Positions 241 through 43,085 of a DNA stretch of 64,000 bases are shown piece by piece; the first letter of the stretch is position 1; each line of letters opens with the position of its first letter. This DNA comes from Thermodesulfobacteriota bacterium (lineage in GTDB: Bacteria > Desulfobacterota_D > UBA1144 > Nemesobacterales > UBA2774), in NCBI GenBank assembly GCA_963422265.1, contig OY729416.1:1192196-1256195 (forward strand). The letters run 5' to 3'. The notes below the pieces were generated by a model. The model was not told where the DNA came from. It saw only the letters and a program-made list of their open reading frames with translations, and made no database searches. Made by a program: the position numbers and the translations under genes.

Positions 241-1269
241 TTAGATAGGAAAGCTCCAAAGCCCTTTTTGATTTTGGGGATGGAGAATATTCAGATGCGT
301 ATAGGCAAGCGGCGTCGCCATCCTACCACGAGGGGTTTTAGCTAATAATCCCTGCCTTATCAAAAAAGGCTCGCACACTTCTTCAATTGTGTCTCTGTCT
401 TCACTCACGGCAGCGGCAATAGTATCAATACCAACGGGTCCACCTTCGAACTTTTCAATTATTGTTTCAAGTATAGTTCTATCAAGCCCATCAAGCCCTA
501 TGGAGTCAATCTCCAGCATATTAAGCGCAGATACCGCAACCTCCAAGTCTATGACGCCGTCGGCTTTAACCTCTGCAAAATCCCGCACTCGCTTTAGTAA
601 CCTGTTCGCAATTCTAGGAGTGCCGCGCGCTCGGCATGAAAGCTCTTTTATCCCTCGCTCAGTAACTTCAACCCCCAAAATACCCGCCGTTCTTATCAAT
701 ATATCTTCAATTTCCCGTGAATCGTAATAATCGAGTCGTAAATCTACCCCGAACCTCGACCTGAGTGGGGAAGTCAGAAGACCTGTCCTAGTAGTAGCTC
801 CCACCAACGTAAAATGATTTACTCCCACCTTCATTGACTTCGCCGTAGGACCCTCGCCTATCATTATATCTATCTTAAAGTCTTCCATTGCAGAGTATAA
901 ATACTCCTCCACAATGCGGTTTAATCTGTGAATTTCATCTATGAACAGAACGTCTCTCTCTTCCAGATTAGTAAGAATTGAAGCGAGATCACCCACTCTC
1001 TCTATTACGGGTCCCGAGGTGGAATAGATTTTCACTCCGAGTTCATTAGCAACAATGTGGGCAAGCGTGGTTTTGCCAAGTCCCGGCGGCCCGTAAAGAA
1101 GTGCGTGATCAAGTGTCTCACCCCTCTTTATTGTCGCTTCAATAAATACCCCTATCTTCTCTTTTACCTTGACCTGCCCCAAATAATCCCTTAGGCGACT
1201 CGGACGGAGATTGACGTCAAATAGAGCGTCTTCCTCTCTATCGTTCGGGTTGATTACTCTGCTATCCAT
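241..1269 (-). CDS. ruvB: Holliday junction branch-migration ATPase RuvB
   Basis: Walker [12 protein letters not shown], the AAA+ RuvB N- and C-domain motifs, and a 342-aa length. Confidence 0.95.
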
Positions 1270-1418
1270 AAAACCCTCTTTTCATTCTAATAAACTAAAA
1301 GCAAATCCACCCAACTCTCCTTTTCAAAAGAAGGGCGGTCTTTCATTTCTTATCAACGCTTGCACAAAACGACTCTCCGTAAAAATTTCGTAGGGACAGG
1401 CGTCGAACCTGTCCAACA

Positions 1419-2006
1419 TCATGCCTTCTTCATAAGCCTGAGGGATTCCCTAAGAGCTACTTCTATATCCTTTTCCTTTGACGTTATCGTTTCAATCTGC
1501 GAGATATGCACATCAATTTCAGGTCTTTTATATCCGAGATTCATCAACGCCGATATTACATCCTCAATAATACCCGCCTCGCTTTCAGCCTTCGCATCAG
1601 GCTCAAACCTAGAGAACTTACCCTTAAGCTCGGTCACGAGCCTAGAGGCTAGCCTCGAGCCTATTCCGGGAATCTTCCTTCCCTCAAGATCCCCTGAGCA
1701 TACAGCCCGGGCAAGGTCACCGGGAGCGACGTTTGAAAGGATACTCACCGCCAATTTAGGACCAACCCCCGAAACCCCTATAAGCAGAGAAAAGACTTCC
1801 CGCTCATCATCGTTAAGAAAGCCGAAAAGCTCAATACTACTCTCTTTCACGTTCGTTTGTATTTTTAACTCCGTTTCACTTCCCAGTTCCGGGAGTAGGT
1901 AGTAGGTAGAAAGGGGGACAGTTACGCCGTATCCAACTCCACCTACGTCTATAATTACTTTTCGGAGTGATTTATAGGCAATTCTGCCTCTAAGAAGGGA
2001 AATCAT
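1419..2006 (-). CDS. ruvA: Holliday junction DNA helicase subunit RuvA
   Basis: MISLLRGRI...VGGVGYGV N-terminus typical of RuvA; 195 aa; sits between ruvC and ruvB. Confidence 0.9.
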   Translation of the reverse strand: MISLLRGRIAYKSLRKVIIDVGGVGYGVTVPLSTYYLLPELGSETELKIQTNVKESSIELFGFLNDDEREVFSLLIGVSGVGPKLAVSILSNVAPGDLARAVCSGDLEGRKIPGIGSRLASRLVTELKGKFSRFEPDAKAESEAGIIEDVISALMNLGYKRPEIDVHISQIETITSKEKDIEVALRESLRLMKKA

Positions 2007-2535
2007 CTAGTCTAAAGCGCCTCATTCTTCTCCTTGTTTGAACAAACTCTTTTCCCAGCTTTCTCTCAATTTGGGAAAGGTTAATATGACAAAGCGCAAC
2101 AGCAACTGCATCCGAGGCGTCCTCCGTTTCAAATTCCGATATCCCGAGAATAGCGGATATCATACTTTGCACTTCGCTTTTATTCGCTCTACCTCTTCCG
2201 GTAAGGGCAAGCTTAACTCTTGTGGGGGAATACTCGTGAATTGAAATCCCAGATTTAGACGCAGCCAGAAGCGCAACGCCCCTCGCCTCCCCGAGCTTTA
2301 TAGCACTCTTTGCGTTTTTTGCGAAGAATATATCCTCAATAGACATAGCACCGGGAGCATAGTCGACTATTAACTTTATTAGGTTCTCGTAAATGACTCG
2401 CAATTTCTGATATAAAGGCAGATCCGCCTTAGGAATAATAGCCCCGTTAGCAATATGAGAGATTTCTCCATTACGGGTCTCGAGAACCCCGTAACCGCAA
2501 ACCCTTGAACCGGGGTCTATCCCAATTACCTTCAT
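1990..2535 (-). CDS. ruvC: Crossover junction endodeoxyribonuclease RuvC
   Basis: [18 protein letters not shown]-terminus (RNase H-like RuvC fold); 181 aa; overlaps the ruvA start by 17 bp. Confidence 0.9.
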
Positions 2536-3281
2536 TGCGTAAGGTTTTCTATTACTTCTTCTGGAACGTCAAAGTTAGAATACACATGCTGAACGTCGTC
2601 ACTGTCCTCAAGCGCTTCCATAAGACGGATCATGTGCTCAGCTTCTTTTCCCTCTACTTTGACACTATTCTGAGGAATCATAGTAACCTCTGCCGAGTCG
2701 TATTTTAGACCCGATTCTTGTATTGCGCTTTTAACGTCTTCTATGATCTCCGGCGGCGTTATAACAACGACCTCATCGTCCCCCGTCGCCACGTCTTCGG
2801 CACCAGCTTCAAGAGCCACTTCAAATACGCTGTCTTCATCAACGCTTGCTTCTTCAAAAGCGATCCTGCCCTTCATGTCAAATATCCATGCAACGCATCC
2901 ATTCTCACCTAAATTGCCACCGTGCTTTGTAAAAATCTTTCTTATATCCGCCACTGTCCGGTTTTTATTATCTGTAAGCGCCCTTACTAATACCGCGCTT
3001 CCTCCGGGACCGTAGCCTTCATAAGAAAGCTCGTAAAACTCATCTCCACCTATTTCCCTGGTCCCGCGCTTTACCGCCCTATCTATAGTATCATTGGGCA
3101 TATTATTGCCTTTAGCAGCAGTTATAGCCGTTCTTAATCGGGGATTCGTTTCAACATCTCCCCCACCCTGCTTAGCAGCTACAGTAAGTTCACGAATCAA
3201 CTTTGTAAAAACTTTACCCCGTTTTGCGTCAACTGCGGCTTTTCTATGCTTTATATTCGCCCATTTTGAATGTCCCGCCAT
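2532..3281 (-). CDS. yebC: YebC/PmpR family DNA-binding transcriptional regulator
   Basis: [15 protein letters not shown] signature start; 249 aa; classic position immediately upstream of ruvC. Confidence 0.9.
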
Positions 3282-3601
3282 AACAACTTAACCTCGCTTT
3301 TTAAGTACTCATTAATATTTGCATTGCTTTTTCAGTACTCATCCAAATTATATTGAAATTGTAAAGCATCTAGTGAGAATTAGCAAGCACCTAAAACCTC
3401 TGAAACTAATCAAATTCTTCAATTTCTAAAAACTTACTTGACAAAATATAAATCTAGCGTAGATAATAGTCCTGTATATATTAACTTTCATAAGCAACTC
3501 AGAGAAACTATCCCTTAGAGCATTATCGTTCATTTCCAAATTCGTTAAGCGATATTTGTTTGTATGGTAATCCTAAAATAATTAACCGAGGAACTTAGTT
3601 T

Positions 3602-4915
3602 ATGGCTAGAGCTACAAAATTGCGGGAAAAACCCGAAGATAGACATTTTGAAGAACGTTCCCGGTTTCTGAGCTTAAACGAGCTTAGGAACCACACAAGC
3701 GCGGAGCTAATGAGGAGGGCAATAGAGCTTAACATTGAAGGGGCGGCGCGCATGACAAAGCAAGATGTAACTTATGCAATACTAAAAGCCCAGAGCGAAA
3801 AAGAAGTAATCATATTTGCTGAAGGAGTGCTCGAAATACTTTCAGAAGGATACGGCTTTTTAAGATCTCCTAAATATAGCTATTTACCCGGACCAGATGA
3901 CATATACGTATCAAAATCACAAATACGCTCATTCAACCTTAAAACCGGAGACACCGTGGGAGGACAGGTCAGGCTTCCAAGGGAAGGCGAAAAAAACCTC
4001 GCCCTGTTTAAGATAGAAGAAGTGAACAACGACTCGCGCGAAGCCTGCAGAGAAAGGGTGGCATTTGAGGATCGCATCCCGCTCCATCCAGAAGAAAGAA
4101 TACACCTTGAATACGATAAGAATGAATTTTGTAGCAGGACGTTAGACTTATTCATCCCTATTGGCAAGGGACAGAGAGCCTTAATCGTGGCTCCCCCGAG
4201 AACGGGTAAAACCATACTACTTCAAAGGATTGCAAATGCAATCACGAGAAACCAACCTGAAATAGCACTTATAGTACTTCTGATAGACGAGCGTCCCGAG
4301 GAAGTAACGGACATGCAGAGGTCAGTCAAGGGAGAGGTAGTGAGTTCAACGTTCGACGAGCCTGCCCAGCGACACATCCAAGTTGCCGACATGGTTCTTG
4401 AAAAAGCAAAAAGGTTGGTTGAGCATCAAAAAGACGTGGTCATCCTACTTGATAGTCTTACCCGTCTTGCTCGCGCTAGCAATACCGTTACTCCCGCAAG
4501 TGGTAGGGTACTCTCAGGTGGCATGGAGGCTAACGCCCTGCAAAGACCGAAAAGGTTCTTTGGAGCAGCGAGAAATACGGAGGATGGCGGTAGCCTTACG
4601 ATAATAGCCACCGCACTTATAGACACTGGAAGTCGAATGGACGAAGTAATATTTGAAGAATTCAAAGGAACGGGGAACATGGAGGCTTATCTCGACAGGC
4701 GCCTTGCCGACAAAAGAGTATTCCCTGCCATTGACTTGCAACGGTCCGGAACGAGAAAAGAAGAACTCTTACTAACAGAAGAGGTACTAAATAAAATGTG
4801 GCTATTAAGAAAGGTTCTAAACCCTATGAATACAACCGAGGCTATGGAATTCCTCTTGGATAAAATAAACAATACGAAATCCAACCACGAGTTCCTCAGT
4901 ATGATGAATCAGTAA
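3602..4915 (+). CDS. rho: Transcription termination factor Rho (N-terminus about 20-35 aa longer than E. coli Rho; true start may be internal)
   Basis: RNA-binding domain plus the RecA-like ATPase [11 protein letters not shown]; 437 aa; preceded by a long 320-bp leader, as is typical for rho. Confidence 0.93.
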
Positions 4916-8501: not shown

Positions 8502-11174
8502 CTAGTTGCCTATAGAATTGAGCAATTCAGATTTGATTCTTTGTATTGTCTCGCTATCCTTGATTTTTTTACCTTTCATATCGGTTACGTAAAACCCGTC
8601 CACAACCTGATCTACCTTTGTAGATATCTTTGCATACTGCGTGGAAAGGCCGAGCTTCGTTATAGACTTGGTTATATCGTATAGAAGTCCACCTCTATCA
8701 TATGTGTAGACGTCAATAATAGTAGCCTTGTCCGAAGATTCATTATCTATCTCCACACGCGTAGGATAACGAGGTATAAACTTGCGATATTGGGAACCCC
8801 CCTTTTTCCTTTTAGCAACAAGTTTTTCTACTTCTATCTTGCCAACTAGAATCTCCCGCATATTACTTCTTAACTTGTCCCACACAGGGTCCTGCTCCTC
8901 AGCCATCTCGCCTAACCTATTTACGTAGAAAACATCTAATATCCTTCCGTCGTCCCTGGTTGTTATCCTAGCACCTAGAATGTTCAATCCACTTGCCCTT
9001 ATTACACCGCAGAGCTGTGAAAAAATCCCTGGCTCATCAAACCCCCAGAAGGTAAACTCGTTATACTGCTCCCTAGAATAGTATAAAACGTTCATTCCTA
9101 TTCCATCTTTGGACTCCTCAATTATACCAACGTGGTAAGCGATTTTGCGGGGAGAAAATCCCAAAAAGTAGGAAGTGGGCATATTCCTTAGGGCGGCGCG
9201 TATCTTTTTCTCGGGTATTTGTCCATCAGCAGCTTGGACTACGCTCCGGGTCACCCTCTTCTTCGTATCTTCAGGAGTTTCTTTCTTAAATTCTCCCCTT
9301 TCAAGAACCTTAGCAGTCCTTACGAAGAGCTCCTTTAATAACATTGCCTTCCAATTATTCCAAACGTTGGGTCCAACGGATTTAATATCGGCGAAGGTTA
9401 AAAGATAAAGCAAGGAAAGCATCTCCAGAGTCTTAACGGATCGTGCGAACCTCAGTATCAAGCTATAATCGTGTATGTCTCGCCTCTGTGAAAAGTGAGA
9501 CATAACCATGTGATGTTTAACCAACAATTCAAGCTGTTCGCCTTCTTTCTGAGATAGTTCCAACGTTCTAGAAAGCTTAGGAATCATGGCAGCTCCCTTC
9601 AGGGCGTGATTTCGCCCCTCGCCCTTACCCATATCGTGAAATAGACAGGCGAGATATAGAACGTGCCTATTCATAAGGGATTCAGCCGTCTTAGTTAACA
9701 GTGGAAGTTCCTTCTCGTATTTATAACTCAGCAAGTTTTCAATCTCCTTTATCATCATAATTGAATGGACGTCCACCGTATAAACGTGATAAGCGTCGTG
9801 CTGCACCATGCAAACTATCTTACCAAATTCAGGAATATAAGAACCCAAAAGTCTAAGCCTATTCATTTCAAATAGTGAGTTCGCTACGTTCTTTCCCGTT
9901 TTAAGGAGTCTCAGAAAAGAGGCGTTAAGTTCTGGATCAGATATAACCTTCTCATCTATAGTAATTCTAACAATCTCGTCCCTTATAAGCCCTTCCAGAT
10001 AATTACTCATACGAACCCCATGCCTATTGGCATATTCAAAAGCGCGCATTAGATTCGATGGCTTTTCTCCAAAGGCAGCAGGACTAGTAACCGAGAGCAC
10101 CCCGCTTTGAATTATAAAACCATGTTGTAGTAACGTTTTCTTAGAAGTCTTAATAGTCGCCCTAGTGTCTTCAGTGCACTTCTCTATCAACCTTTTTGAT
10201 CTCTCTCTGACGTCGTTTGCCCTTAGATAATAACTTCTCATAAACATTTCGATTGCGAGACGCTTAGTGTTCGAAAAACCGAGAAACTTTGCGAGCTCTT
10301 CCTGAAGTTCAAAAGTTAGTCTGTCCTCACGCCTCCCTGCTAGGTAGTGAAGCTCTGAGCGAACAAGGAGAAGAAAGCCAAGATCCTCTTCAAATCCCCT
10401 AAGTTCTTCTTCAACTAACACCCCCTTAGAGGTCAGCTCCGCAAAGCTCTTTACCTTATACTTGGCTTGTGCAATCCAGAGGGCTGAATTTATATCTCTA
10501 AGACCACCTTCCCCTTCTTTAACGTTAGGCTCTAGCAGATAAATTGACCCTCCGAACTTGCTAAGCCTATTCTCATTCTCTTTTATTTTACGCCGAATAA
10601 ACTTAGCCGAGACTGAAGGCAACAAATCACGGAAGAGCTTATCGTCAAAGAGCAAATACAAATTCCTATCCCCGTAAATAAACCTGCCGTCGAGAAGCGA
10701 CGTCAGTATAGTGGTATCATCGCTATCCTCGCTAGAAAGCTCCATACACTCATCTATTGTTCTAACCGAGTGTCCGACGTCAAGATTTAGATCCCAAAGT
10801 AGGTAAAGCAGTTTTTCAGTAACGTGTTTTGCGAGAGTTTTATTGCGCTTCTTGTAAAGGAACATCAAATCTATATCAGAATAAGGACATAATTCCCTTC
10901 TCCCATAACCTCCGAGTGCTAGTATAGAGATATTTTTAATGTCCCTGAAACCGAGTTGAGTTAACGCTTGCCAAATGAGTCTATCAATAATGTCAGACTG
11001 CATTTTCGCAAGGATTCTGCCCGAAAGAGCTCTTTCATGTTTAGCTTGTTTATTATGAATCTTTCTAAGCCCGTCTCGCTTACGAATAAGCCTTTGTTTA
11101 ATCTGTTCACTCAAGCTATTTTGATCAAGCGCTAAACTGTCGGATTTCTTCATCTTACCTCCACTATCCCGCAA
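8502..11174 (-). CDS. glnD: Bifunctional [protein-PII] uridylyltransferase/uridylyl-removing enzyme GlnD
   Basis: 890 aa with a nucleotidyltransferase domain, an HD domain (HD...H motifs) and two C-terminal ACT domains. Confidence 0.9.
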   Translation of the reverse strand: MRDSGGKMKKSDSLALDQNSLSEQIKQRLIRKRDGLRKIHNKQAKHERALSGRILAKMQSDIIDRLIWQALTQLGFRDIKNISILALGGYGRRELCPYSDIDLMFLYKKRNKTLAKHVTEKLLYLLWDLNLDVGHSVRTIDECMELSSEDSDDTTILTSLLDGRFIYGDRNLYLLFDDKLFRDLLPSVSAKFIRRKIKENENRLSKFGGSIYLLEPNVKEGEGGLRDINSALWIAQAKYKVKSFAELTSKGVLVEEELRGFEEDLGFLLLVRSELHYLAGRREDRLTFELQEELAKFLGFSNTKRLAIEMFMRSYYLRANDVRERSKRLIEKCTEDTRATIKTSKKTLLQHGFIIQSGVLSVTSPAAFGEKPSNLMRAFEYANRHGVRMSNYLEGLIRDEIVRITIDEKVISDPELNASFLRLLKTGKNVANSLFEMNRLRLLGSYIPEFGKIVCMVQHDAYHVYTVDVHSIMMIKEIENLLSYKYEKELPLLTKTAESLMNRHVLYLACLFHDMGKGEGRNHALKGAAMIPKLSRTLELSQKEGEQLELLVKHHMVMSHFSQRRDIHDYSLILRFARSVKTLEMLSLLYLLTFADIKSVGPNVWNNWKAMLLKELFVRTAKVLERGEFKKETPEDTKKRVTRSVVQAADGQIPEKKIRAALRNMPTSYFLGFSPRKIAYHVGIIEESKDGIGMNVLYYSREQYNEFTFWGFDEPGIFSQLCGVIRASGLNILGARITTRDDGRILDVFYVNRLGEMAEEQDPVWDKLRSNMREILVGKIEVEKLVAKRKKGGSQYRKFIPRYPTRVEIDNESSDKATIIDVYTYDRGGLLYDITKSITKLGLSTQYAKISTKVDQVVDGFYVTDMKGKKIKDSETIQRIKSELLNSIGN

Positions 11175-11252
11175 CAGGAGCGTGCCGAAGCAGTTTCATG
11201 ATTAAGCATATATGCAGGATAGACTACAGGACAAGTTCTGGAGCAATCCATT

Positions 11253-11849
11253 CTACAATTTTATGCTAACTGAAACCCCATCTCTAATAGGTATAATTGT
11301 TGTGTAAAAGCCCTCGTGAGACATAATAAGACGCGTAAACTCCCTAATCCCTTCACTGGATTCTGACTTGTCACTGGTTAGCACCCTTCCGCTCCATAGT
11401 AGATTATCTGTAATAAGAAGCCCCCCTTTTTGCAGTATGCGATAAGACTCGTCAACTACACTAGGATAAAGCTCTTTATCTATATCGTTGAAAATAATAT
11501 CAAATCGCTCTTCAGCACACTCCAAAAAAAATAAGGCGTCACCTTCATAAACGTCAACCCTTTCCCTAACGCCCATCCTTGTGAGAAACTCATTTGCGAG
11601 TTTTATATTATCGCTAGAATACTCCGTTATATAAACTCTCCCACTATCGCCTATAGCCTTGGCGAACCAATAAGCCGAATAGCCAAATCCTGATCCTAGC
11701 TCTAAAACCTTCTTAGCCCCTGCGATTTTTGTGATCTGATATAAGAATCGTCCTACAAGCGGCCCTATTATCGGAAATTCATTCTCCTCCGCCCATTTTT
11801 CCATCCCCAATAGAGCATCGTCCCTACTAGTATCGCCAAGGCTTTGCAA
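11253..11849 (-). CDS. Class I SAM-dependent O-methyltransferase (caffeoyl-CoA OMT-like, COG4122)
   Basis: VLELGSGFGYSAYW SAM-binding motif I; about 198 aa, typical of O-methyltransferase family 3. Confidence 0.75.
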   Translation of the reverse strand: MQSLGDTSRDDALLGMEKWAEENEFPIIGPLVGRFLYQITKIAGAKKVLELGSGFGYSAYWFAKAIGDSGRVYITEYSSDNIKLANEFLTRMGVRERVDVYEGDALFFLECAEERFDIIFNDIDKELYPSVVDESYRILQKGGLLITDNLLWSGRVLTSDKSESSEGIREFTRLIMSHEGFYTTIIPIRDGVSVSIKL

Positions 11850-37225: not shown

Positions 37226-38767
37226 GTGCCTAAAACCTTTTACGTTACTACGCCGATCTATTACGTTAATGACGTGCCTCATATAGGACACGCTTATACC
37301 ACTATTGCTGCGGACGCTATCGCCAGGTTCAGAAGGCTCGCTGGTAATGAGGTCTTTTTCCTCACCGGCAGCGACGAGCACGGGCAAAAAATCGAGATGA
37401 CGGCTAAAGCGAATGGTGAGAAGCCCATAGAGCTTGCGAATAGGGTAGTAAAAAGATTTCATGACCTCTCCGGCGCCTTAAACGTTACCAATGACGATTT
37501 TATTAGAACTACCCAGAGAAGGCATCAAGACTCCGTTGTAGAAATATTTAAGAGAATACAAAAAGCGGGAGATATTTACCTGAGTGAGTATGAGGGTTGG
37601 TATGACGTTAGGAACGAAGCATTCATAACCGAAACGCAATATGAAGAAGTAATGGCTCTACCAGAATCTAAACGTCCCAATATTGAAAAGGTAAAAGAAG
37701 AGAGCTACTTCTTCAGACTTTCCGAATACCAGGAGCGACTTCTTAATCATTATGAAAAGCACTCCGAGTTCGTGCAGCCAAGCTACAGGATGAACGAGGT
37801 TGTGCGTTTTGTAGAGAGTGGATTGAAGGACCTCAGCATAAGTAGAACCACGTTTAGCTGGGGTATACCCGTTCCAGAAAACCCACGCCACGTGATCTAC
37901 GTGTGGTTTGATGCTCTTGCAAACTATCTAACTGGCGCTGGTTTTCCAAATAATAAAACAACTTTTAATGAAATATACCCAGCAGACGTTCACCTAGTAG
38001 GTAAAGATATACTGAGATTCCACGCCGTGTATTGGCCGGCTTTTCTTATGTCGGCACAGCTACCACTCCCTAAAACGGTATTCGCCCATGGGTGGTGGAC
38101 CGTTGAAGGAGAAAAAATGTCAAAATCCTTGGGTAACGTAGTAGATCCATATGAAATGGTGGAACGGTTCGGATCGGATATATTCAGATATTTCCTGCTC
38201 CGAGAAATTCCTTTCGGACAAGATGGTGATTTCTCAAAAAGCGCTATTGTAGCAAGGGTAAACGGTGATCTTGCAAACGGCTTGGGCAACCTTATCAGCC
38301 GAGTGCTTAGTATGATTAAAAAGTATTGTAACAGCCGCGTTCCCGCCCCTTCCGCATTGAATGACATAGACCTGAAAGTCAGGGATAGTGGCTTTTCAGC
38401 AGTAGATCGTGTAGGTGATTCAATGAGCGAAATCGCCTTTCATAAGGCTTTAACGGCTATTTGGGATTTAATTGCCCATGTAAATAAATACGTTGATGAA
38501 CAAGCTCCATGGACGCTCGCAAAAGAAAATAAAGAAGAAAGATTGAATACCGTTCTCTGGACGATTATTCAATCTATAGGCGTGATTTCAATACTGCTGT
38601 CTCCTTTTATGCCAAAAGCGTCAGAAGAAATACTGAGAAGGATAGGCTTCACTGACCCGACGTCTTACCTAAAGTTGTCAAAAGCGCGTGAATGGGGATT
38701 GATAACATCAGGCTCTAAAATTGATAAGGGAAAGAACCTGTTCCCACGACATGAAGAGGATCTGTAG
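37226..38767 (+). CDS. metG: Methionine--tRNA ligase (short form, no C-terminal tRNA-binding domain), GTG start
   Basis: HIGH (HIGHAYT) and KMSKS motifs; 513 aa. Confidence 0.93.
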   Translation: MPKTFYVTTPIYYVNDVPHIGHAYTTIAADAIARFRRLAGNEVFFLTGSDEHGQKIEMTAKANGEKPIELANRVVKRFHDLSGALNVTNDDFIRTTQRRHQDSVVEIFKRIQKAGDIYLSEYEGWYDVRNEAFITETQYEEVMALPESKRPNIEKVKEESYFFRLSEYQERLLNHYEKHSEFVQPSYRMNEVVRFVESGLKDLSISRTTFSWGIPVPENPRHVIYVWFDALANYLTGAGFPNNKTTFNEIYPADVHLVGKDILRFHAVYWPAFLMSAQLPLPKTVFAHGWWTVEGEKMSKSLGNVVDPYEMVERFGSDIFRYFLLREIPFGQDGDFSKSAIVARVNGDLANGLGNLISRVLSMIKKYCNSRVPAPSALNDIDLKVRDSGFSAVDRVGDSMSEIAFHKALTAIWDLIAHVNKYVDEQAPWTLAKENKEERLNTVLWTIIQSIGVISILLSPFMPKASEEILRRIGFTDPTSYLKLSKAREWGLITSGSKIDKGKNLFPRHEEDL

Positions 38768-38840
38768 ATAGGTGCAGCTTCGTTAAGGACTACTCTTTCC
38801 AAAAAATTCAACTCGCCCGCACGGGAGGGTGTGCTTTTTA

Positions 38841-39206
38841 TTAACCATAAAGTTTCCTGATACGGCTTCTGTTTTCCAAATCCTTATCACCCTTAAAATA
38901 TATTTCTACGAGTTCAATTCTTCCCTCTCTTCCAAAGTAGGCATAAATTATTCTGAGCCCCGATTGAACCCCTTTCCCTTTTAAGGACTTAGACGTGAAC
39001 TTTCTGACTTTATATATTTCAGTTTCAGTAATTCCTGAATCGCTGATACGCTTTATGCCCTTGTTGTTTTGACCCATAAGATGAAATGGATTTAACTGGT
39101 AATTAATAAAGGTTTGCAGGTCTTCTTCAAGAGTTTTGACTTTTCTTAGCAGCTTTTTAATGTCACTTTTGAACTCCGGTAGCTGTTCAACCCTGATCTT
39201 CTTCAA
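38841..39206 (-). CDS. RelE/ParE-superfamily type II toxin (mRNA-interferase-like)
   Basis: 121 aa; C-terminal GLRIIYAYF...RIELVEIYFKGDKD resembles the RelE/ParE core; overlaps the upstream antitoxin gene by 20 bp. Confidence 0.6.
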   Translation of the reverse strand: MKKIRVEQLPEFKSDIKKLLRKVKTLEEDLQTFINYQLNPFHLMGQNNKGIKRISDSGITETEIYKVRKFTSKSLKGKGVQSGLRIIYAYFGREGRIELVEIYFKGDKDLENRSRIRKLYG

Positions 39207-39978
39207 TATAATTTCTCACTGAGTAGGCGGGAGTTCTGTAAAAAACAGCTTCATAGTCAATTTTCTCTTGATCCTCCGTGCCAAGCCAGGGTATGTCATT
39301 GTGTGAGTATTCGGCGATTTGAGAGGCGTTCATATCCGATAACCTTCCAAGAACGTTATCAATTGTGTTAAGCTCGTTTGCATTTAGGGCTGAAAGATCG
39401 GGGTTACGCAAGGGAAGATATTTTGTCTGGCTGTAACTAAAATGCCTGTTTTTCACTTTGACTACATCTTTGTTTTCTATCATATCTCCTATAATTTTTA
39501 TAAACTCAGCTGGTGTTGGACCAAATTTACTCCTGATGTAATTCGCTCCAACCAACTGTTCTTCGTGCTTCTCGTAGTAGTCAAAGTCAATAAAGTAAAG
39601 CATCTTTTGTATAACGGTTTCACCCACGTTTGGCTTTGCGCCCACTTTGTTGAGAATATACAAAAGCACTTCTTTGAACTTGATGAGATTCTTTTGAGGA
39701 ACGCTTATTCTCAAAGTCTCTTTCTTAGGCTTGGCTTCCCTACTCTTTTTAACAATGATCTCAACGCTTTCCTTATTGTTCACCAGGGCATCAATAGAGC
39801 ATTCAAAAAGCTCAGATAGCTTGTTTATCTCGTCTAATTTCGGCATTCGGACGCCGTTTTCAATATTTGATACAATCTCCCTGCTCGTACCAATAGCCTT
39901 AGCCAATTCTGCTTGGGAAAGTTCGGCACTTTGTCTTAACTGTTTTATCTTTTTGCCTAACTCTTTAGATTGAATCAT
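39187..39978 (-). CDS. HTH-XRE plus DUF4065 (Panacea/SocA-like) domain antitoxin
   Basis: Helix-turn-helix LSQAELAKAIGTSREIVSNIENG; DUF4065-like IQKMLYFIDFDYY...GANYIRSKFGPTP; start taken at the MIQSKELGKK Met (the ORF extends further, to 40092). Confidence 0.7.
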   Translation of the reverse strand: MIQSKELGKKIKQLRQSAELSQAELAKAIGTSREIVSNIENGVRMPKLDEINKLSELFECSIDALVNNKESVEIIVKKSREAKPKKETLRISVPQKNLIKFKEVLLYILNKVGAKPNVGETVIQKMLYFIDFDYYEKHEEQLVGANYIRSKFGPTPAEFIKIIGDMIENKDVVKVKNRHFSYSQTKYLPLRNPDLSALNANELNTIDNVLGRLSDMNASQIAEYSHNDIPWLGTEDQEKIDYEAVFYRTPAYSVRNYIEEDQG

Positions 39979-40176
39979 GGTTAGTGGGTTTGCCAAACTA
40001 TTTTGATATTTATTGTAATTATTGTAATATTTTATTACGAGAGTTGTAAAACTTTGTTGCATTTTTGTATTGTTGATGTGTATGTTATGCACTTAATCTT
40101 ATGTTTGGATCAAACTCCAGATAAGTGAGCAATAACTGATTTTACGTTTGTAGAAAGTGGCTAGAATCTTAGCCGT

Positions 40177-40338
40177 GATACCCAGAAAATCTTACCAAAC
40201 TTAAAAGATATTGGAGACAAGTCTGCCCATAGCCGAAGATTTAACGCTCACAGGCAGGATATTGAAAAATTACTTCCAGATATTCGGGTGTGCACGCAAG
40301 AGCTTATTTATCTTGCAGGTTTTCAAAATGGTCAATAA
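40177..40338 (+). pseudogene. Possible DUF4145-like C-terminal fragment (remnant)
   Basis: LKDIGDKSAHSRRF...IEKLLPDI...ELIYLAGF resembles the (L/I)RN.GNK.AH helix of DUF4145 domains found in RM and Abi proteins; short and unanchored. Confidence 0.25.
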
Positions 40339-40389
40339 ATCTTGCTAATTACCAGACCTTTCTATAAATTGTAAAGTTGTCTAACAATC

Positions 40390-40596
40390 CTAATCAAACC
40401 CCACCACATCCTCCTCAACCCCCAAATAAACCTCATCAATCCTTTCTTGAATCCTGATTGCCTTTTTGATTGCGGTTACAATTTTGCAGTAGTGTTTTAT
40501 ATCGTCTAAAGATAAATGTCTTCTTTTCCTGTACTTTAGCCATTTACTGCAAACCTGATAGCCGCCGATTCGGTATTCATAAACTTCTTGACTCAC
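40390..40596 (-). pseudogene. C-terminal remnant of a large type IIG/ISP-like restriction-modification enzyme
   Basis: YRIGGYQVCSKWLKYRKRRHLSLDDIKHYCKIVTAIKKAIRIQERID matches the conserved C-terminal tail of large SAM-dependent RM fusion enzymes; an in-frame stop lies 3 codons upstream, so only about 68 aa remain. Confidence 0.5.
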
Positions 40597-40627
40597 ACCT
40601 TCAAAATTACGAACACTTCAATTCTAA

Positions 40628-41524
40628 TTGTTTCCTACTTTTGTTAAACAAGGTATCAGTAGTAGGGTTGAACTAGTAGGCAGTATTTGCTATGCTAACA
40701 AGGTAATGAGGCCGGTAGAAACAGAAAAATGTATACGGCAGATTGTCCGTAGCTCCGTTGAGGCGTACGCAGATGGTTTTGAAACTCGCCACGTTAGAGA
40801 AGTAGACGATCTAGACGGAACTATTAACATGAAAATTCATAACGTCTTTATTGCAGCATTAGGTAAGGAGGTCCAATATTATACAGCGCTTGTGCGCTCT
40901 CTTGATAGCTCATTAGGAAATATGTTGGAGAGGATGGCAATAAACATTGCGAAGCTCTTCTATGAAGTAAATAAAAACGTAGAAGGTCCGTTAGCTGTTG
41001 AACAAACGTCAAAAATCGCGGAATTGCTTGAAGGATATAAAAATAGAAATAACCCTTTAGTCTCAAGCATATCTCATTACAAACAAATTAGAGATATAGG
41101 AATCACGTCAGACTCAGCAACGAAAGTCCACGTGAGCGATTACTATTTGATAGACAAAGAAACAAACGAACATTACTTGATTGAATTAAAGATTGGTGGA
41201 GACTTGGACAATAAAAAAGCTCGTTCGGAGAAGGAAGCGATTTTCGAACAGTATGCAATACTCTCAAATAAATTGGGTAAGAATGCAAGTATAAAATGTT
41301 ACTTTGCTACAGCTTATAATAGATTTGGAGAAGGTAAAGAGTGGAAACAATCGAGAGTCTTGCAATTCTTTTCAAAAGATGAACTCCTTATCGGGAAAGA
41401 CTTTTGGAACTTCGTATGCTGTAGTGAAAAGGGTTATGACATTGTGATTGATGAATACAAAGAGTCAGCGCATTTAGTAAAATCAGCATTGCGCAACATC
41501 AAAGAGACGTATTTATATGGATAA
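40628..41524 (+). CDS. Putative type II restriction endonuclease (PD-(D/E)xK)
   Basis: D...ELK motif (VSDYYLIDKETNEHYLIELKIGG); no other domain found; 8-bp overlap with the downstream methyltransferase gene. Confidence 0.45.
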   Translation: MFPTFVKQGISSRVELVGSICYANKVMRPVETEKCIRQIVRSSVEAYADGFETRHVREVDDLDGTINMKIHNVFIAALGKEVQYYTALVRSLDSSLGNMLERMAINIAKLFYEVNKNVEGPLAVEQTSKIAELLEGYKNRNNPLVSSISHYKQIRDIGITSDSATKVHVSDYYLIDKETNEHYLIELKIGGDLDNKKARSEKEAIFEQYAILSNKLGKNASIKCYFATAYNRFGEGKEWKQSRVLQFFSKDELLIGKDFWNFVCCSEKGYDIVIDEYKESAHLVKSALRNIKETYLYG

Positions 41525-42257
41525 AAAATATCAAATTGTAAATGCTGATAGTAAAGAGTACTTAAAGGGGCTACCTAATAACTCTATCGACTTCATTCTA
41601 ACTGATCCCCCTTACAATATAAGTCAATATTCAACTGGCAATATAAAGTTTGGCTGGCGAGCAGACATTAACAACGATCTGGCTGAATGGGATAAAAAGT
41701 TTTCCCCCCTGGATTTTAGAGATGAGTTCTTAAGAGTCTTAAAACCTACAGGGAATATCTTTGCTTTTTGCTCCTATAATATAATTGGCAAATGGCATGA
41801 AGTATTTGATCCTGTTTTCGATACGTTTCAGTTTTTCGTGTGGCATAAAAAGAATCCCGTTCCAAAATTTCGGAAAGCCGGCTTCTTAAATAGCTGTGAA
41901 CTCGTAGTATGTATGTGGAATAAAGGACACACTTGGAACTTTGGCAAACAAAATGAGATGCACAATTTCTTTGAAAGTCCAATCTGCATGGGACCAGAAA
42001 GATTAAAAAAACCGAAGCACCCTACGCAAAAGCCAGTAGGGCTATTAAAACACTTTATCAAAATAGCTTCAAATGAAGACGATACTATATTAGACCCTTT
42101 TATGGGAGTTGGCTCCACTGGCGTTGCCTCTTTAAGAATGAAAAGGAAATTTATAGGAGTAGAAATAGATAAAGAATACTATGATGCTGCTCAAGAAAGA
42201 CTAGATTCCATTCCGACGGATTTGTTTTCAAGAGTGTCTGCTATTGCAAAGACGTGA
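41517..42257 (+). CDS. Beta-class DNA methyltransferase (N6-adenine or N4-cytosine; DPPY motif IV, then FMGVGST motif I)
   Basis: ILTDPPYN near the N-terminus and DPFMGVGSTGVA...FIGVEID at the C-terminus; 246 aa. Confidence 0.85.
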   Translation: MDKKYQIVNADSKEYLKGLPNNSIDFILTDPPYNISQYSTGNIKFGWRADINNDLAEWDKKFSPLDFRDEFLRVLKPTGNIFAFCSYNIIGKWHEVFDPVFDTFQFFVWHKKNPVPKFRKAGFLNSCELVVCMWNKGHTWNFGKQNEMHNFFESPICMGPERLKKPKHPTQKPVGLLKHFIKIASNEDDTILDPFMGVGSTGVASLRMKRKFIGVEIDKEYYDAAQERLDSIPTDLFSRVSAIAKT

Positions 42258-42662
42258 CGTCAAAGGGTTGTTAGTGTGTAACCAACTTTTACAATTCAAT
42301 CAAGCTAGGGCGATAACACCTTTAAATAACCAGTGGACTTTCACCCCACAGGAGGCTTACTTCTTTTTCATTCCTAACAGATTCCGCAAAAAGCTCCCTC
42401 CGTTGCTAGGACTACAGAGTCCTCTTGTTATAATTTGGTATTCAGAAGGTTGGATGTTTTCATTAGGAACGTAGGACTCTCCTTGTTTATAATCATTTTC
42501 AGTATTAGTGGACTCTTGATTTTTATCATTTTCGCTCATTGGCATATTCTCCTTATTTATTGGTTAGTCCCTGTCCATAGATTTTAACACTACCAATCCT
42601 CGATTTTAATGATACAATAGAGTTAGTATTGAAATCTACTTAGTCAACTTCAACGTGGGAGG

Positions 42663-43085
42663 ATGCTAATGAGCCAGCAATCCGTTATCGTCGTCTTTGA
42701 TGATGGACCTTACGTAGTGGAAGGTCTTGAGAGGTTTAGCTACTCGGAGGGAGAGCAGCTTCAGGCAAATAAAAAAACGGCCTTGTGCAGATGTGGGGCA
42801 TCTGAAAACAAACCATACTGTGACGGCGCTCATAAGAAAATTGGGTTCTCTCATAAGATTGAAAAATCCCCGGCGGGCAACGCTAATGAAGATAGCATAA
42901 AAGAGATAAAAGTTTTAAGTAACGGGCCTTATGAAGTATGCGGGGGAATAGGCTTACAGACTAAAGATGAAATGAACTTATCTGAAGATAATCCGTATTA
43001 TCTGTGCAGATGTGGGGCATCTGATAACAAACCGTTCTGCGATGGCTCACATAAAAGAATAAACTTTAAGGATGACGCAAACTGA
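42663..43085 (+). CDS. Tandem CDGSH iron-sulfur domain protein
   Basis: Two CRCGAS-NKP-CDG(A/S)HK motifs, an internal duplication. Confidence 0.85.
   Translation: MLMSQQSVIVVFDDGPYVVEGLERFSYSEGEQLQANKKTALCRCGASENKPYCDGAHKKIGFSHKIEKSPAGNANEDSIKEIKVLSNGPYEVCGGIGLQTKDEMNLSEDNPYYLCRCGASDNKPFCDGSHKRINFKDDAN

Follow-up and report, generated by a model that had tools for sequence, protein, structure and literature searches.

The two genes at positions 40706 to 42257 of the window (the whole stretch of DNA analysed here, 64,000 nucleotides) very probably form a classical two-gene type II restriction-modification (R-M) cassette of the TdeIII family, laterally acquired and, most likely, with a GAWTC-type recognition site. 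The R-M islet is ordinary: it belongs to a known, well-populated family and holds no new nuclease. The main value of the analysis is a correction of the annotation, to a routine TdeIII/MjaII-family cassette. All of the features described in an earlier, sequence-only reading were present at or near where it had placed them.

The first gene (40706–41524, plus strand) encodes a 272-aa type II restriction endonuclease of the PD-(D/E)XK type. Its maximal open reading frame is longer (40628–41524, 298 aa from a TTG) and the start is probably the ATG at 40706; the 272-aa form is identical to a database protein (P0002), and the homologues all start at this position. The protein matched Pfam PF09520 (TdeIII/MjaII; E = 4e-36, 125.2 bits, cut-off 27.2) over residues 36–278, on model positions 12–239 of 242. 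PF09520 was listed as the ‘MjaII’ family by Steczkiewicz et al. 2012 (PMC3424549). The sequence-only reading had left the nuclease without a family, which was wrong, and had suggested that it could be a novel restriction enzyme. It is a typical PF09520 enzyme, with ~2,900 homologues across phyla, many of them 70–80% identical.

The description of this nuclease as intact-looking was borne out. Its gene has no frameshift or internal stop, residues D145, E160 and K162 (272-aa numbering) fall in invariant columns of an alignment of 25 homologues (D...ExK), and every column invariant among those homologues is retained. The structural model was confident, with a predicted restriction-endonuclease-like fold, and a fold search gave EcoO109I as the sole strong match; a sequence search against PDB chains gave nothing useful. 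Scores against the HinfI and HpyAIV nuclease equivalogs (NF045831, NF045832) were 14–15 bits, below the cut-offs of 160–175. No controller protein was found upstream of the gene.

The second gene (41517–42257, plus strand) encodes a 246-aa beta-class amino-DNA methyltransferase with a DPPY motif. The overlap of 8 bp between the two genes was also as described, with the ATG of the methyltransferase at 41517 and the TAA of the nuclease at 41522–41524. The protein matched PF01555 along the whole model (positions 1–221 of 221; E = 6.9e-39, 134.5 bits, cut-off 26.7) and PADLOC MTase_II (E = 3.3e-52). LTDPPYN is found at residues 28–34 (DPPY at 30–33) and DPFMGVGSTG at ~193–202. Motif IV therefore precedes motif I, the circularly permuted arrangement by which the beta class is defined. 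The closest solved structures are adenine methyltransferases (5hek, E = 5.6e-38; CcrM, E = 4.3e-31). As its score against the CcrM/HinfI-type GANTC equivalog NF050803 was 133.7 bits compared to a cut-off of 830, the enzyme is, judged by its sequence, a relative of CcrM and not a CcrM orthologue. Its homologues numbered 3,491, many of them on contigs equal in size to those of the nuclease homologues.

Nuclease and methyltransferase genes form a mobile cassette of two genes, which was acquired here by lateral transfer. A beta-class methyltransferase lay downstream of the nuclease on the same strand in 67 of 80 metagenome loci with the nuclease, often overlapping it or within ~20 nt. DNA similarity to other cassettes is confined to 40700–42214 and ends at the ends of the open reading frames. 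Nuclease homologues of 70–80% identity occur in Coatesbacteria, Anaerolineae, Bacteroidetes and Patescibacteria, and another homologue is carried by a small Psychrobacter plasmid together with relaxase/mobilization genes. In related genomes, 80 metG loci were compared, and neither the pair nor any other gene of its interval lay near metG in them. This comparison supports a non-core pair. The lower GC content of the interval (0.37 compared to 0.425) and a near-identical copy in an independent sample (L001) also speak for a lateral origin.

We infer that the cassette probably recognises GAWTC, with N6-adenine methylation, and not the nominal GGNCC; at minimum, a GANTC-type site containing adenine is most likely. 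This is based on a typed plasmid relative, the adenine-only methylases of sister cassettes, and site depletion in contigs that carry the cassettes. In the plasmid relative, pA3H9, the only partner of the nuclease is a D12 adenine methylase, which was experimentally shown to methylate GAWTC (PMC10457243). In sister cassettes, orthologues of this D12 methylase, 36–39% identical to it over the full length, are encoded between nuclease and beta methylase; the nuclease of those cassettes is 79%, and their beta methylase 72%, identical to the one here. The argument is thus a transitive one, across 64–79% identity and a different methylase class.

Across carrier contigs totalling 518 kb, the observed/expected (O/E) ratio of GAWTC was 0.66 (z = −10.9), with depletion in all three cassette types, compared to 0.85 for GASTC in the same contigs and 0.95 for GAWTC in control loci that were not GC-matched. 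GGNCC (O/E 0.70) and GGWCC (0.63) were also depleted, in contigs that generally avoid palindromes (median 6-mer O/E 0.73). The most depleted well-sampled 6-mer was GAATTC (O/E 0.42), which was unexpected and is unexplained. Because of this broad avoidance, the GAATTC dip and the GC content of the controls, we take the depletion across the 80 carrier contigs as supportive only.

The names TdeIII and MjaII suggest instead a GGNCC-specific system, in which the DPPY methyltransferase would make N4-methylcytosine. TdeIII is listed as a GGNCC enzyme in the Pfam description, and a literature search yielded no statement of its recognition site. MjaII is likewise listed as a GGNCC enzyme, with its methylase, M.MjaII, given as m5C, which is a different class from the methyltransferase here (PMC11033074). 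We consider GGNCC unlikely for this cassette. The close relatives of its nuclease, in the sister cassettes and on pA3H9, are paired with adenine-specific D12 methylases, of which the pA3H9 enzyme has been typed as above, whereas GGNCC has no fixed adenine. Furthermore, the solved relatives that best match the DPPY methyltransferase are adenine enzymes (1e-38 to 1e-31), with N4-cytosine enzymes at 1e-16. Thus, for a large and widely transferred clade of PF09520, an adenine-containing site is supported bioinformatically, probably GAWTC and not GGNCC. Such a site would affect the reading of thousands of database entries, and would be relevant for transforming organisms that carry these cassettes.

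GAWTC was not avoided in the 64-kb window (156 sites, O/E 1.05), where GANTC and GGNCC also had O/E ratios of ~1. This fits a recent arrival of the cassette, and equally a nuclease that is inactive or has another site. If the nuclease were inactive or silent, the methyltransferase would be an orphan (epigenetic) methylase, and the pair would be decaying like its neighbours. The setting among remnants of other systems and the lack of avoidance of candidate sites in the host are in keeping with such decay, as is the failure to find a convincing promoter upstream of the nuclease gene, although the sigma-70 consensus scan used was not calibrated for the host phylum. Nevertheless, decay is distinctly unlikely for a gene that has an open frame and all family-invariant residues. 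A near-identical pair, with the same junction to the adjacent remnant, was found in an independent sample (L001), and DNA identity between the two is 98.9% for the nuclease and 99.8% for the methyltransferase, compared to 89.8% for the remnant. An enzymatically active pair is therefore the reading we prefer. In such a pair, the PD-(D/E)XK nuclease would most likely act as a homodimer, by analogy with its structural neighbour EcoO109I, and would cleave a short palindromic site wherever it is unmethylated. The methyltransferase, presumably coupled to it in translation through the 8-bp overlap, would protect the host DNA by methylating that site, and phage or plasmid DNA that enters without the methylation would be cut.

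The cassette lies within a variable, AT-rich interval (38768–42662) between metG (37226–38767) and a CDGSH gene (42663–43085), the flanking genes that had been named before. GC content in the interval is 0.373, compared to 0.425 in the rest of the window, and lies below that of every 3.9-kb window outside it (their minimum is 0.379). The region is thus AT-richer than its flanks, as had been claimed, to a real but modest extent. The window contains no tRNA genes, and neither an integrase in the interval nor significant flanking repeats that might explain the insertion turned up.

The further proposal, that this is a defence hotspot between conserved genes, was weakly supported: the two flanking genes are indeed present, but among the 80 metG loci of related genomes they are adjacent in just one further genome, L004, whose interval holds a small-molecule SAM methyltransferase together with a TetR regulator and no defence genes. 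Of the closest relatives whose sequence reaches far enough downstream, 7 have a prepilin-type operon after metG. In view of the L004 interval and of this operon in the relatives, we describe the site as a place where synteny breaks, not as an established hotspot for defence genes.

A putative Panacea-type toxin-antitoxin (TA) pair (38841–40092), overlooked in the sequence-only reading, lies in the same AT-rich interval. The antitoxin gene (39187–39978, minus strand; maximal open reading frame to 40092, likely start at the ATG at 39978) encodes an HTH (XRE) and SocA/Panacea-domain protein. It matched Pfam SocA_Panacea (PF13274; E = 7.2e-17, 62.8 bits, cut-off 25.7) and HTH_3 (E = 1.2e-15), and more weakly NCBIfam SocA_antitoxin (E = 3.6e-5). 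Its 3′ end is overlapped by 20 nt by a 121-aa open reading frame (38841–39206, minus strand), a putative toxin by its position. This partner had no match in Pfam, NCBIfam or PADLOC, a match to phrog_5869 (of unknown function) at E = 1.7e-5, and no plasmid or viral relatives in our searches; AlphaFold2, run on its sequence alone, gave no usable model (pLDDT 44). As the partner has no recognisable toxin family, the pairing is positional. Upstream of the antitoxin gene, a promoter-like site (40021–40050, minus strand; TTTACA-18-TACAAT) has 10 of 12 matches and was the best in the scanned region, but is only suggestive because the total of such sites was no higher than in shuffled sequence.

Between the TA pair and the cassette lie two pieces that, by their alignments, are genuine 3′ gene remnants. 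The piece nearer the cassette (40390–40605, minus strand) is the last ~68–71 codons of a gene for a type IIG/type ISP R-M enzyme, in agreement with the 68-aa C-terminal stub of a type IIG-like enzyme reported earlier on the opposite strand. Its 68-aa open reading frame (40390–40596) matched Type_ISP_C (PF18135; E = 1.8e-8) at positions 292–338 of 342, and PADLOC REase_MTase_IIG (E = 3.3e-12) at positions 1017–1063 of 1096, which is the extreme C-terminus. Similarity to a longer relative by tblastn ends at 40605, and an in-frame stop follows at 40618–40620. The enzyme is not intact: ~70 of >1,000 codons are left, its nuclease, helicase, methyltransferase and recognition domains are missing from the window, and a tblastn search with the upstream part of the relative found no other pieces there. 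We also considered whether the stub travels with the cassette. It does not, being absent from all 80 of the other cassette loci and present only in the near-identical L001.

The other piece (40165–40338, plus strand) comprises the last 57 codons and stop of a gene for a DUF4145-domain protein. On its own the fragment scored below the Pfam cut-off for PF13643 (E = 0.14; 12.7 bits, cut-off 23.1). For its stop-free frame (40165–40335), 263 homologues were identified, the best at E = 1.5e-15 and 69% identity. The frame always aligns to the C-terminal end of the matched proteins, whose lengths run from those of short fragments up to ~250–370 aa. PF13643 was matched by 8 of 10 scanned homologues at E ≤ 0.001, five of them above the cut-off. 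The DUF4145 fragment, previously put forward as possible, is thus present.

It is extremely improbable that the 68-aa Type_ISP_C open reading frame is a live small gene, perhaps for an independent peptide with a DNA-binding or regulatory role, kept beside defence genes: all 17 homologues found are short (56–119 aa, 53–72% identical in the alignment) and 10 of the 17 codons that differ between the window and L001 do so synonymously, but the short homologues have unaligned N-termini with no common start, one of them (L082) is the tail of a frameshifted gene (a 423-aa Type_ISP_C open reading frame and then one of 116 aa), the match spans only the last ~47 of 342 model positions, similarity runs upstream past the GTG start to the in-frame stop, the stub is missing from the 80 other cassette loci, and gene callers, by reporting only fragments that are still open, give a biased sample. 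Because of the unaligned N-termini and the frameshifted gene, we largely rejected a real family of small Type_ISP_C genes.

Isolated Type_ISP_C tails, on unrelated contigs, were found in three of four contexts inspected, one of them beside a Gabija-like pair; the fourth was the tail of the frameshifted longer gene. In a speculative and very unlikely reading, the conserved 3′ end of type IIG/ISP genes would be a scar or target that recurs when defence genes replace one another: small cassettes, such as this TdeIII-family pair, would overwrite large single-chain R-M genes, with the same ~70-codon tail left behind. If so, isolated tails would mark a general mechanism of turnover, and in an extreme version they would be kept because they are, putatively, still functional.

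With two convergent genes cut to their 3′ ends, this islet illustrates the turnover of defence genes cleanly and on a small scale. In the course of events suggested by the layout, the cassette would have arrived as a bare gene pair by horizontal transfer, and would sit where most of the type IIG/ISP gene once lay, with its last 68–71 codons left. This remnant and the 57 surviving 3′ codons of the DUF4145 gene are in convergent orientation, and the 5′ side of the latter gene now holds the HTH-Panacea antitoxin and the putative toxin. The newer modules (the TA and R-M pairs) thus appear to occupy the positions of the lost 5′ parts, at a synteny breakpoint in a Dadabacteria/Thermodesulfobacteriota-like genome.

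How does this islet compare to known systems? The TdeIII system of Treponema denticola (nuclease TDE0911, methyltransferase TDE0909) appears to share with it PF09520, a ~270-aa PD-(D/E)XK nuclease and a neighbouring DNA methyltransferase, and the patchy, laterally transferred distribution of the TdeIII/PF09520 family is common to the nuclease here. For its clade, the GGNCC site nominally given for the archetypes probably does not hold. EcoO109I (PDB 1wtd), which recognises RGGNCCY, is alike in fold but only 12% identical in sequence. Closer relatives are found in three-gene sister cassettes of nuclease, D12 methylase and beta methylase (L088, L109), where the nuclease is 72–79% identical; the beta methylase of L088 is 72% identical to the methyltransferase here, and that of the L109 type only ~30%. 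The cassette here lacks the D12 methylase, and its nuclease and beta methylase genes overlap directly. Plasmid pA3H9 of Psychrobacter sp. ANT_H3 (NZ_MN657089) has the same order of nuclease then methylase, with a nuclease 63.6% identical over 98% of its length. However, its methylase is a 376-aa D12 enzyme (alpha, Dam-like) rather than a beta-class PF01555 enzyme, and its module is plasmid-borne rather than chromosomal.

Among solved structures and NCBIfam models, the methyltransferase was matched best (E = 5.6e-38, 4.3e-31 and 7.2e-39) by beta-class adenine enzymes, namely the H. pylori enzyme 5hek/5hfj, deposited as ‘DpnA’ and which we take to be M1.HpyAVI, and CcrM/HinfI-type GANTC methylases. 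These too have DPPY motif IV before motif I. In contrast, the methyltransferase lacks the C-terminal extension of CcrM, and scores far below the equivalog cut-offs (134 compared to 830 bits for CcrM). Similarly, the stub resembles LlaGI/LlaBIII-type ISP and type IIG single-chain enzymes at their extreme C-terminus only. Finally, the putative TA pair has the arrangement of PanA-type (Panacea-domain) pairs, with SocA as their paradigm, in which the gene for an HTH and Panacea protein lies upstream of, and overlaps, a small open reading frame.

The R-M islet in the 3.9-kb gap between metG (37226-38767, plus strand) and the two-domain CDGSH gene (42663-43085, plus strand) is real and had been correctly read from the sequence alone: ORF calls and windowed GC bore out its coordinates, gene sizes, 8-bp overlap and AT-richness. 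GC content was 0.373 in the interval and 0.425 elsewhere in the window, and every 3.9-kb window outside the interval was higher. About 400 bp at its right end hold no recognisable gene. This stretch, which separates the methyltransferase gene from the CDGSH gene, includes an acidic, low-complexity ORF of 62 aa (42357-42545, minus strand) that had no family match and contains a direct repeat of 19 nt (42482 and 42515).

The nuclease gene (298-aa maximal ORF, 40628-41524, plus strand) matched Pfam PF09520 (RE_TdeIII) over nearly the full model (positions 12-239 of 242, E 4.2e-36), with weak extra matches to the RE_EcoO109I, HinfI and HpyAIV models. The sequence-only reading had left this protein without a family and suggested that it might be novel; it belongs instead to a well-known family. 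A database search with the protein returned 2,942 homologues, of which the best 120 share 70-100% identity with it. Only a few bear a name ('TdeIII family type II restriction endonuclease' or 'MjaII restriction endonuclease'), and their sources are Coatesbacteria, Anaerolineae, Bacteroidetes and Patescibacteria. P0002, an identical protein of 272 aa, is encoded on a 1.78-Mb NCBI/ENA contig, and the ATG at 40706 is the likely start because all homologues begin there. PF09520 is labelled 'HinfI' in the collection's precomputed table and 'RE_TdeIII' in the hmmscan library; a renaming of the family, if there was one, would fit a GANTC-type specificity.

The methyltransferase (246-aa ORF, 41517-42257, plus strand) matched the full PF01555 model (E 6.9e-39), with DPPY towards the N-terminus and FxGxG towards the C-terminus, the order of the beta class. 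Its homologues number 3,491, and many top-ranking ones are listed on contigs equal in size to those carrying nuclease homologues.

The R-M pair is a mobile two-gene cassette. Similarity to other cassettes at the DNA level covers 40700-42214 and is thus confined to the two ORFs, and a PF01555-type methyltransferase lies downstream of the nuclease on the same strand in 67 of the 80 metagenome loci that the nuclease alignment recovered. A search around the cassette for flanking repeats, a tRNA or an integrase found none. The family was seen in three builds. In the window's own, the nuclease is followed directly by a methyltransferase 59-80% identical to that of the window. In the second, a D12-class (Dam-like) adenine methylase of ~375-390 aa stands between the nuclease and a beta-class methylase (examples are L088, 1199-2377, and L109, 6816-7937); the latter is 69-73% identical to the window's enzyme in L088, L091 and L098 and about 30% in the L109 group. 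The third, found on the Psychrobacter plasmid pA3H9, has only the nuclease and the D12 methylase (L166, 3531-4661). In a few loci (L104, L108) a short HTH ORF, which could encode a controller protein, lies just upstream of the nuclease gene.

None of the interval's genes was found at 80 metG loci of relatives (best metG identity 76%, nearest Candidatus Dadabacteria/Thermodesulfobacteriota). Because it is missing from all 80, the R-M pair is clearly accessory. The order tmk-holB-metG is widely conserved upstream among these loci, and in seven close relatives (L002, L005-L010) a prepilin-type, type IV pilus-like operon follows directly 3' of metG, from about 11700. A CDGSH gene after metG occurs in only one other locus (L004), where a winged-HTH SAM methyltransferase and a TetR regulator precede it. 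What the loci show at 38768 is thus a synteny breakpoint whose content varies; the defence hotspot proposed for this site is not demonstrated. In the closest relative (L010, a 1.33-Mb contig), metG (10007-11534) falls into two frames, with the break near 11360, an apparent frameshift that may be an assembly error.

Upstream of the cassette lie two remnants with convergent 3' ends. The first, a 68-aa ORF (40390-40596, minus strand), aligned with no more than the final 47 or so positions of Type_ISP_C (292-338 of 342), and with 1017-1063 of the 1,096 positions of a type IIG model. Its similarity to a longer relative stops at 40605, with an in-frame stop codon at 40618-40620, and no further pieces of the type IIG gene were found across the window. 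All 17 database homologues are short. We considered whether such ORFs form a small-gene family and largely rejected this: their N-termini do not align, one (L082) forms the end of a larger, frameshifted gene, and two (L083, L085) are isolated tails in unrelated contexts. A fourth, in L084, sits at the margin of the sequence inspected. We read these short ORFs as probable remnants. In the L085 region 335-4595, the 119-aa tail follows a Gabija-like pair (an OLD-TOPRIM ATPase and a UvrD helicase) after a gap of ~400 bp.

The second remnant, a stop-free frame of 57 codons (40165-40335, plus strand), had been tentatively called a DUF4145 fragment, and this was supported: its 263 homologues (best E 1.5e-15) all aligned through their C-terminal ends, and DUF4145 was carried by eight of the ten scanned. 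A 1.6-kb Logan contig from a second sample has the same junction of remnant, nuclease and methyltransferase, with DNA identities of 99.8% for the methyltransferase, 98.9% for the nuclease, 95.4% for the spacer and 89.8% for the 68-aa ORF. This gradient would fit a conserved, selected R-M pair beside a less constrained or recombined remnant. Over the compared stretch (40390-42100), mismatches in the 68-aa ORF cluster at 40482-40597, with 10 of 17 changed codons synonymous, a pattern that hints at recombination with another allele.

Next to metG lies a putative toxin-antitoxin pair absent from the sequence-only reading. A minus-strand HTH_3 plus SocA/Panacea gene (maximal ORF 39187-40092, likely start ATG 39978) matches antitoxin-type profiles, by which we confidently assign its product as a predicted antitoxin-type protein; the promoter scan placed its best-scoring site (10/12 matches, 40050-40021) just upstream. 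It precedes and overlaps a 121-aa ORF (38841-39206, minus strand) whose sole match was phrog_5869 (1.7e-5), with no assigned family, no plasmid or viral relatives found and no usable AlphaFold2 model; its sequence pattern is, we presume, reminiscent of RelE/ParE-type toxins. The simplest history would be that two newer modules overwrote an older gene pair. The R-M cassette would now sit where the type IIG gene once had its 5' part, and the toxin-antitoxin promoter region where the DUF4145 gene had its own.

The recognition site is probably GAWTC or, more broadly, GANTC, carrying m6A. Nucleases 64-79% identical to the window's have a D12-class methylase as their sole or joint partner, and this class is specific for adenine. 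The pA3H9 methylase methylates GAWTC, as shown by a protection assay (PMC10457243), and the D12 methylases of sister cassettes are homologous to it over their full length (36-39% identity, E about 1e-80). Across the carrier contigs, 518 kb in all, the observed/expected ratio (O/E) of GAWTC was 0.66 (z -10.9; 0.69, 0.66 and 0.62 by cassette type) and that of GASTC 0.85; GAWTC reached 0.95 in metG control loci, which are much more GC-rich than the carriers and so not GC-matched. The GAWTC signal is tempered by a general avoidance of palindromes in the carriers. The window itself has 156 GAWTC sites (O/E 1.05), consistent with recent arrival of the cassette.

Some other site is possible, at clearly lower probability. 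GAWTC leaves unexplained a dip in GAATTC, the most depleted well-sampled 6-mer palindrome in the 80 carrier contigs (96 vs 227 expected, O/E 0.42, z -8.7), which is present in all three cassette types and has an O/E of 0.55 in the window. GGNCC with m4C is unlikely: the family name suggests it, MjaII being listed as a GGNCC enzyme with an m5C methylase, and GGNCC is also low in the carriers (O/E 0.70), but the best solved relatives of the methyltransferase are the adenine enzymes 5hek/5hfj (E about 6e-38) and CcrM (E 4e-31), against around 1e-16 for N4-cytosine enzymes. Across the window as a whole, GGCC (31 vs 149 expected, O/E 0.21), GTAC (35 vs 140, 0.25), GTATAC (2 vs 10.6) and GAGCTC (8 vs 20.7) are strongly under-represented, which suggests that other R-M systems, past or present, with HaeIII- or RsaI-like sites, shaped the host genome.

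With GAWTC as its likely specificity, the islet adds this assignment and a neat case of turnover among defence genes, both of minor value; the R-M pair itself is of a well-known kind.
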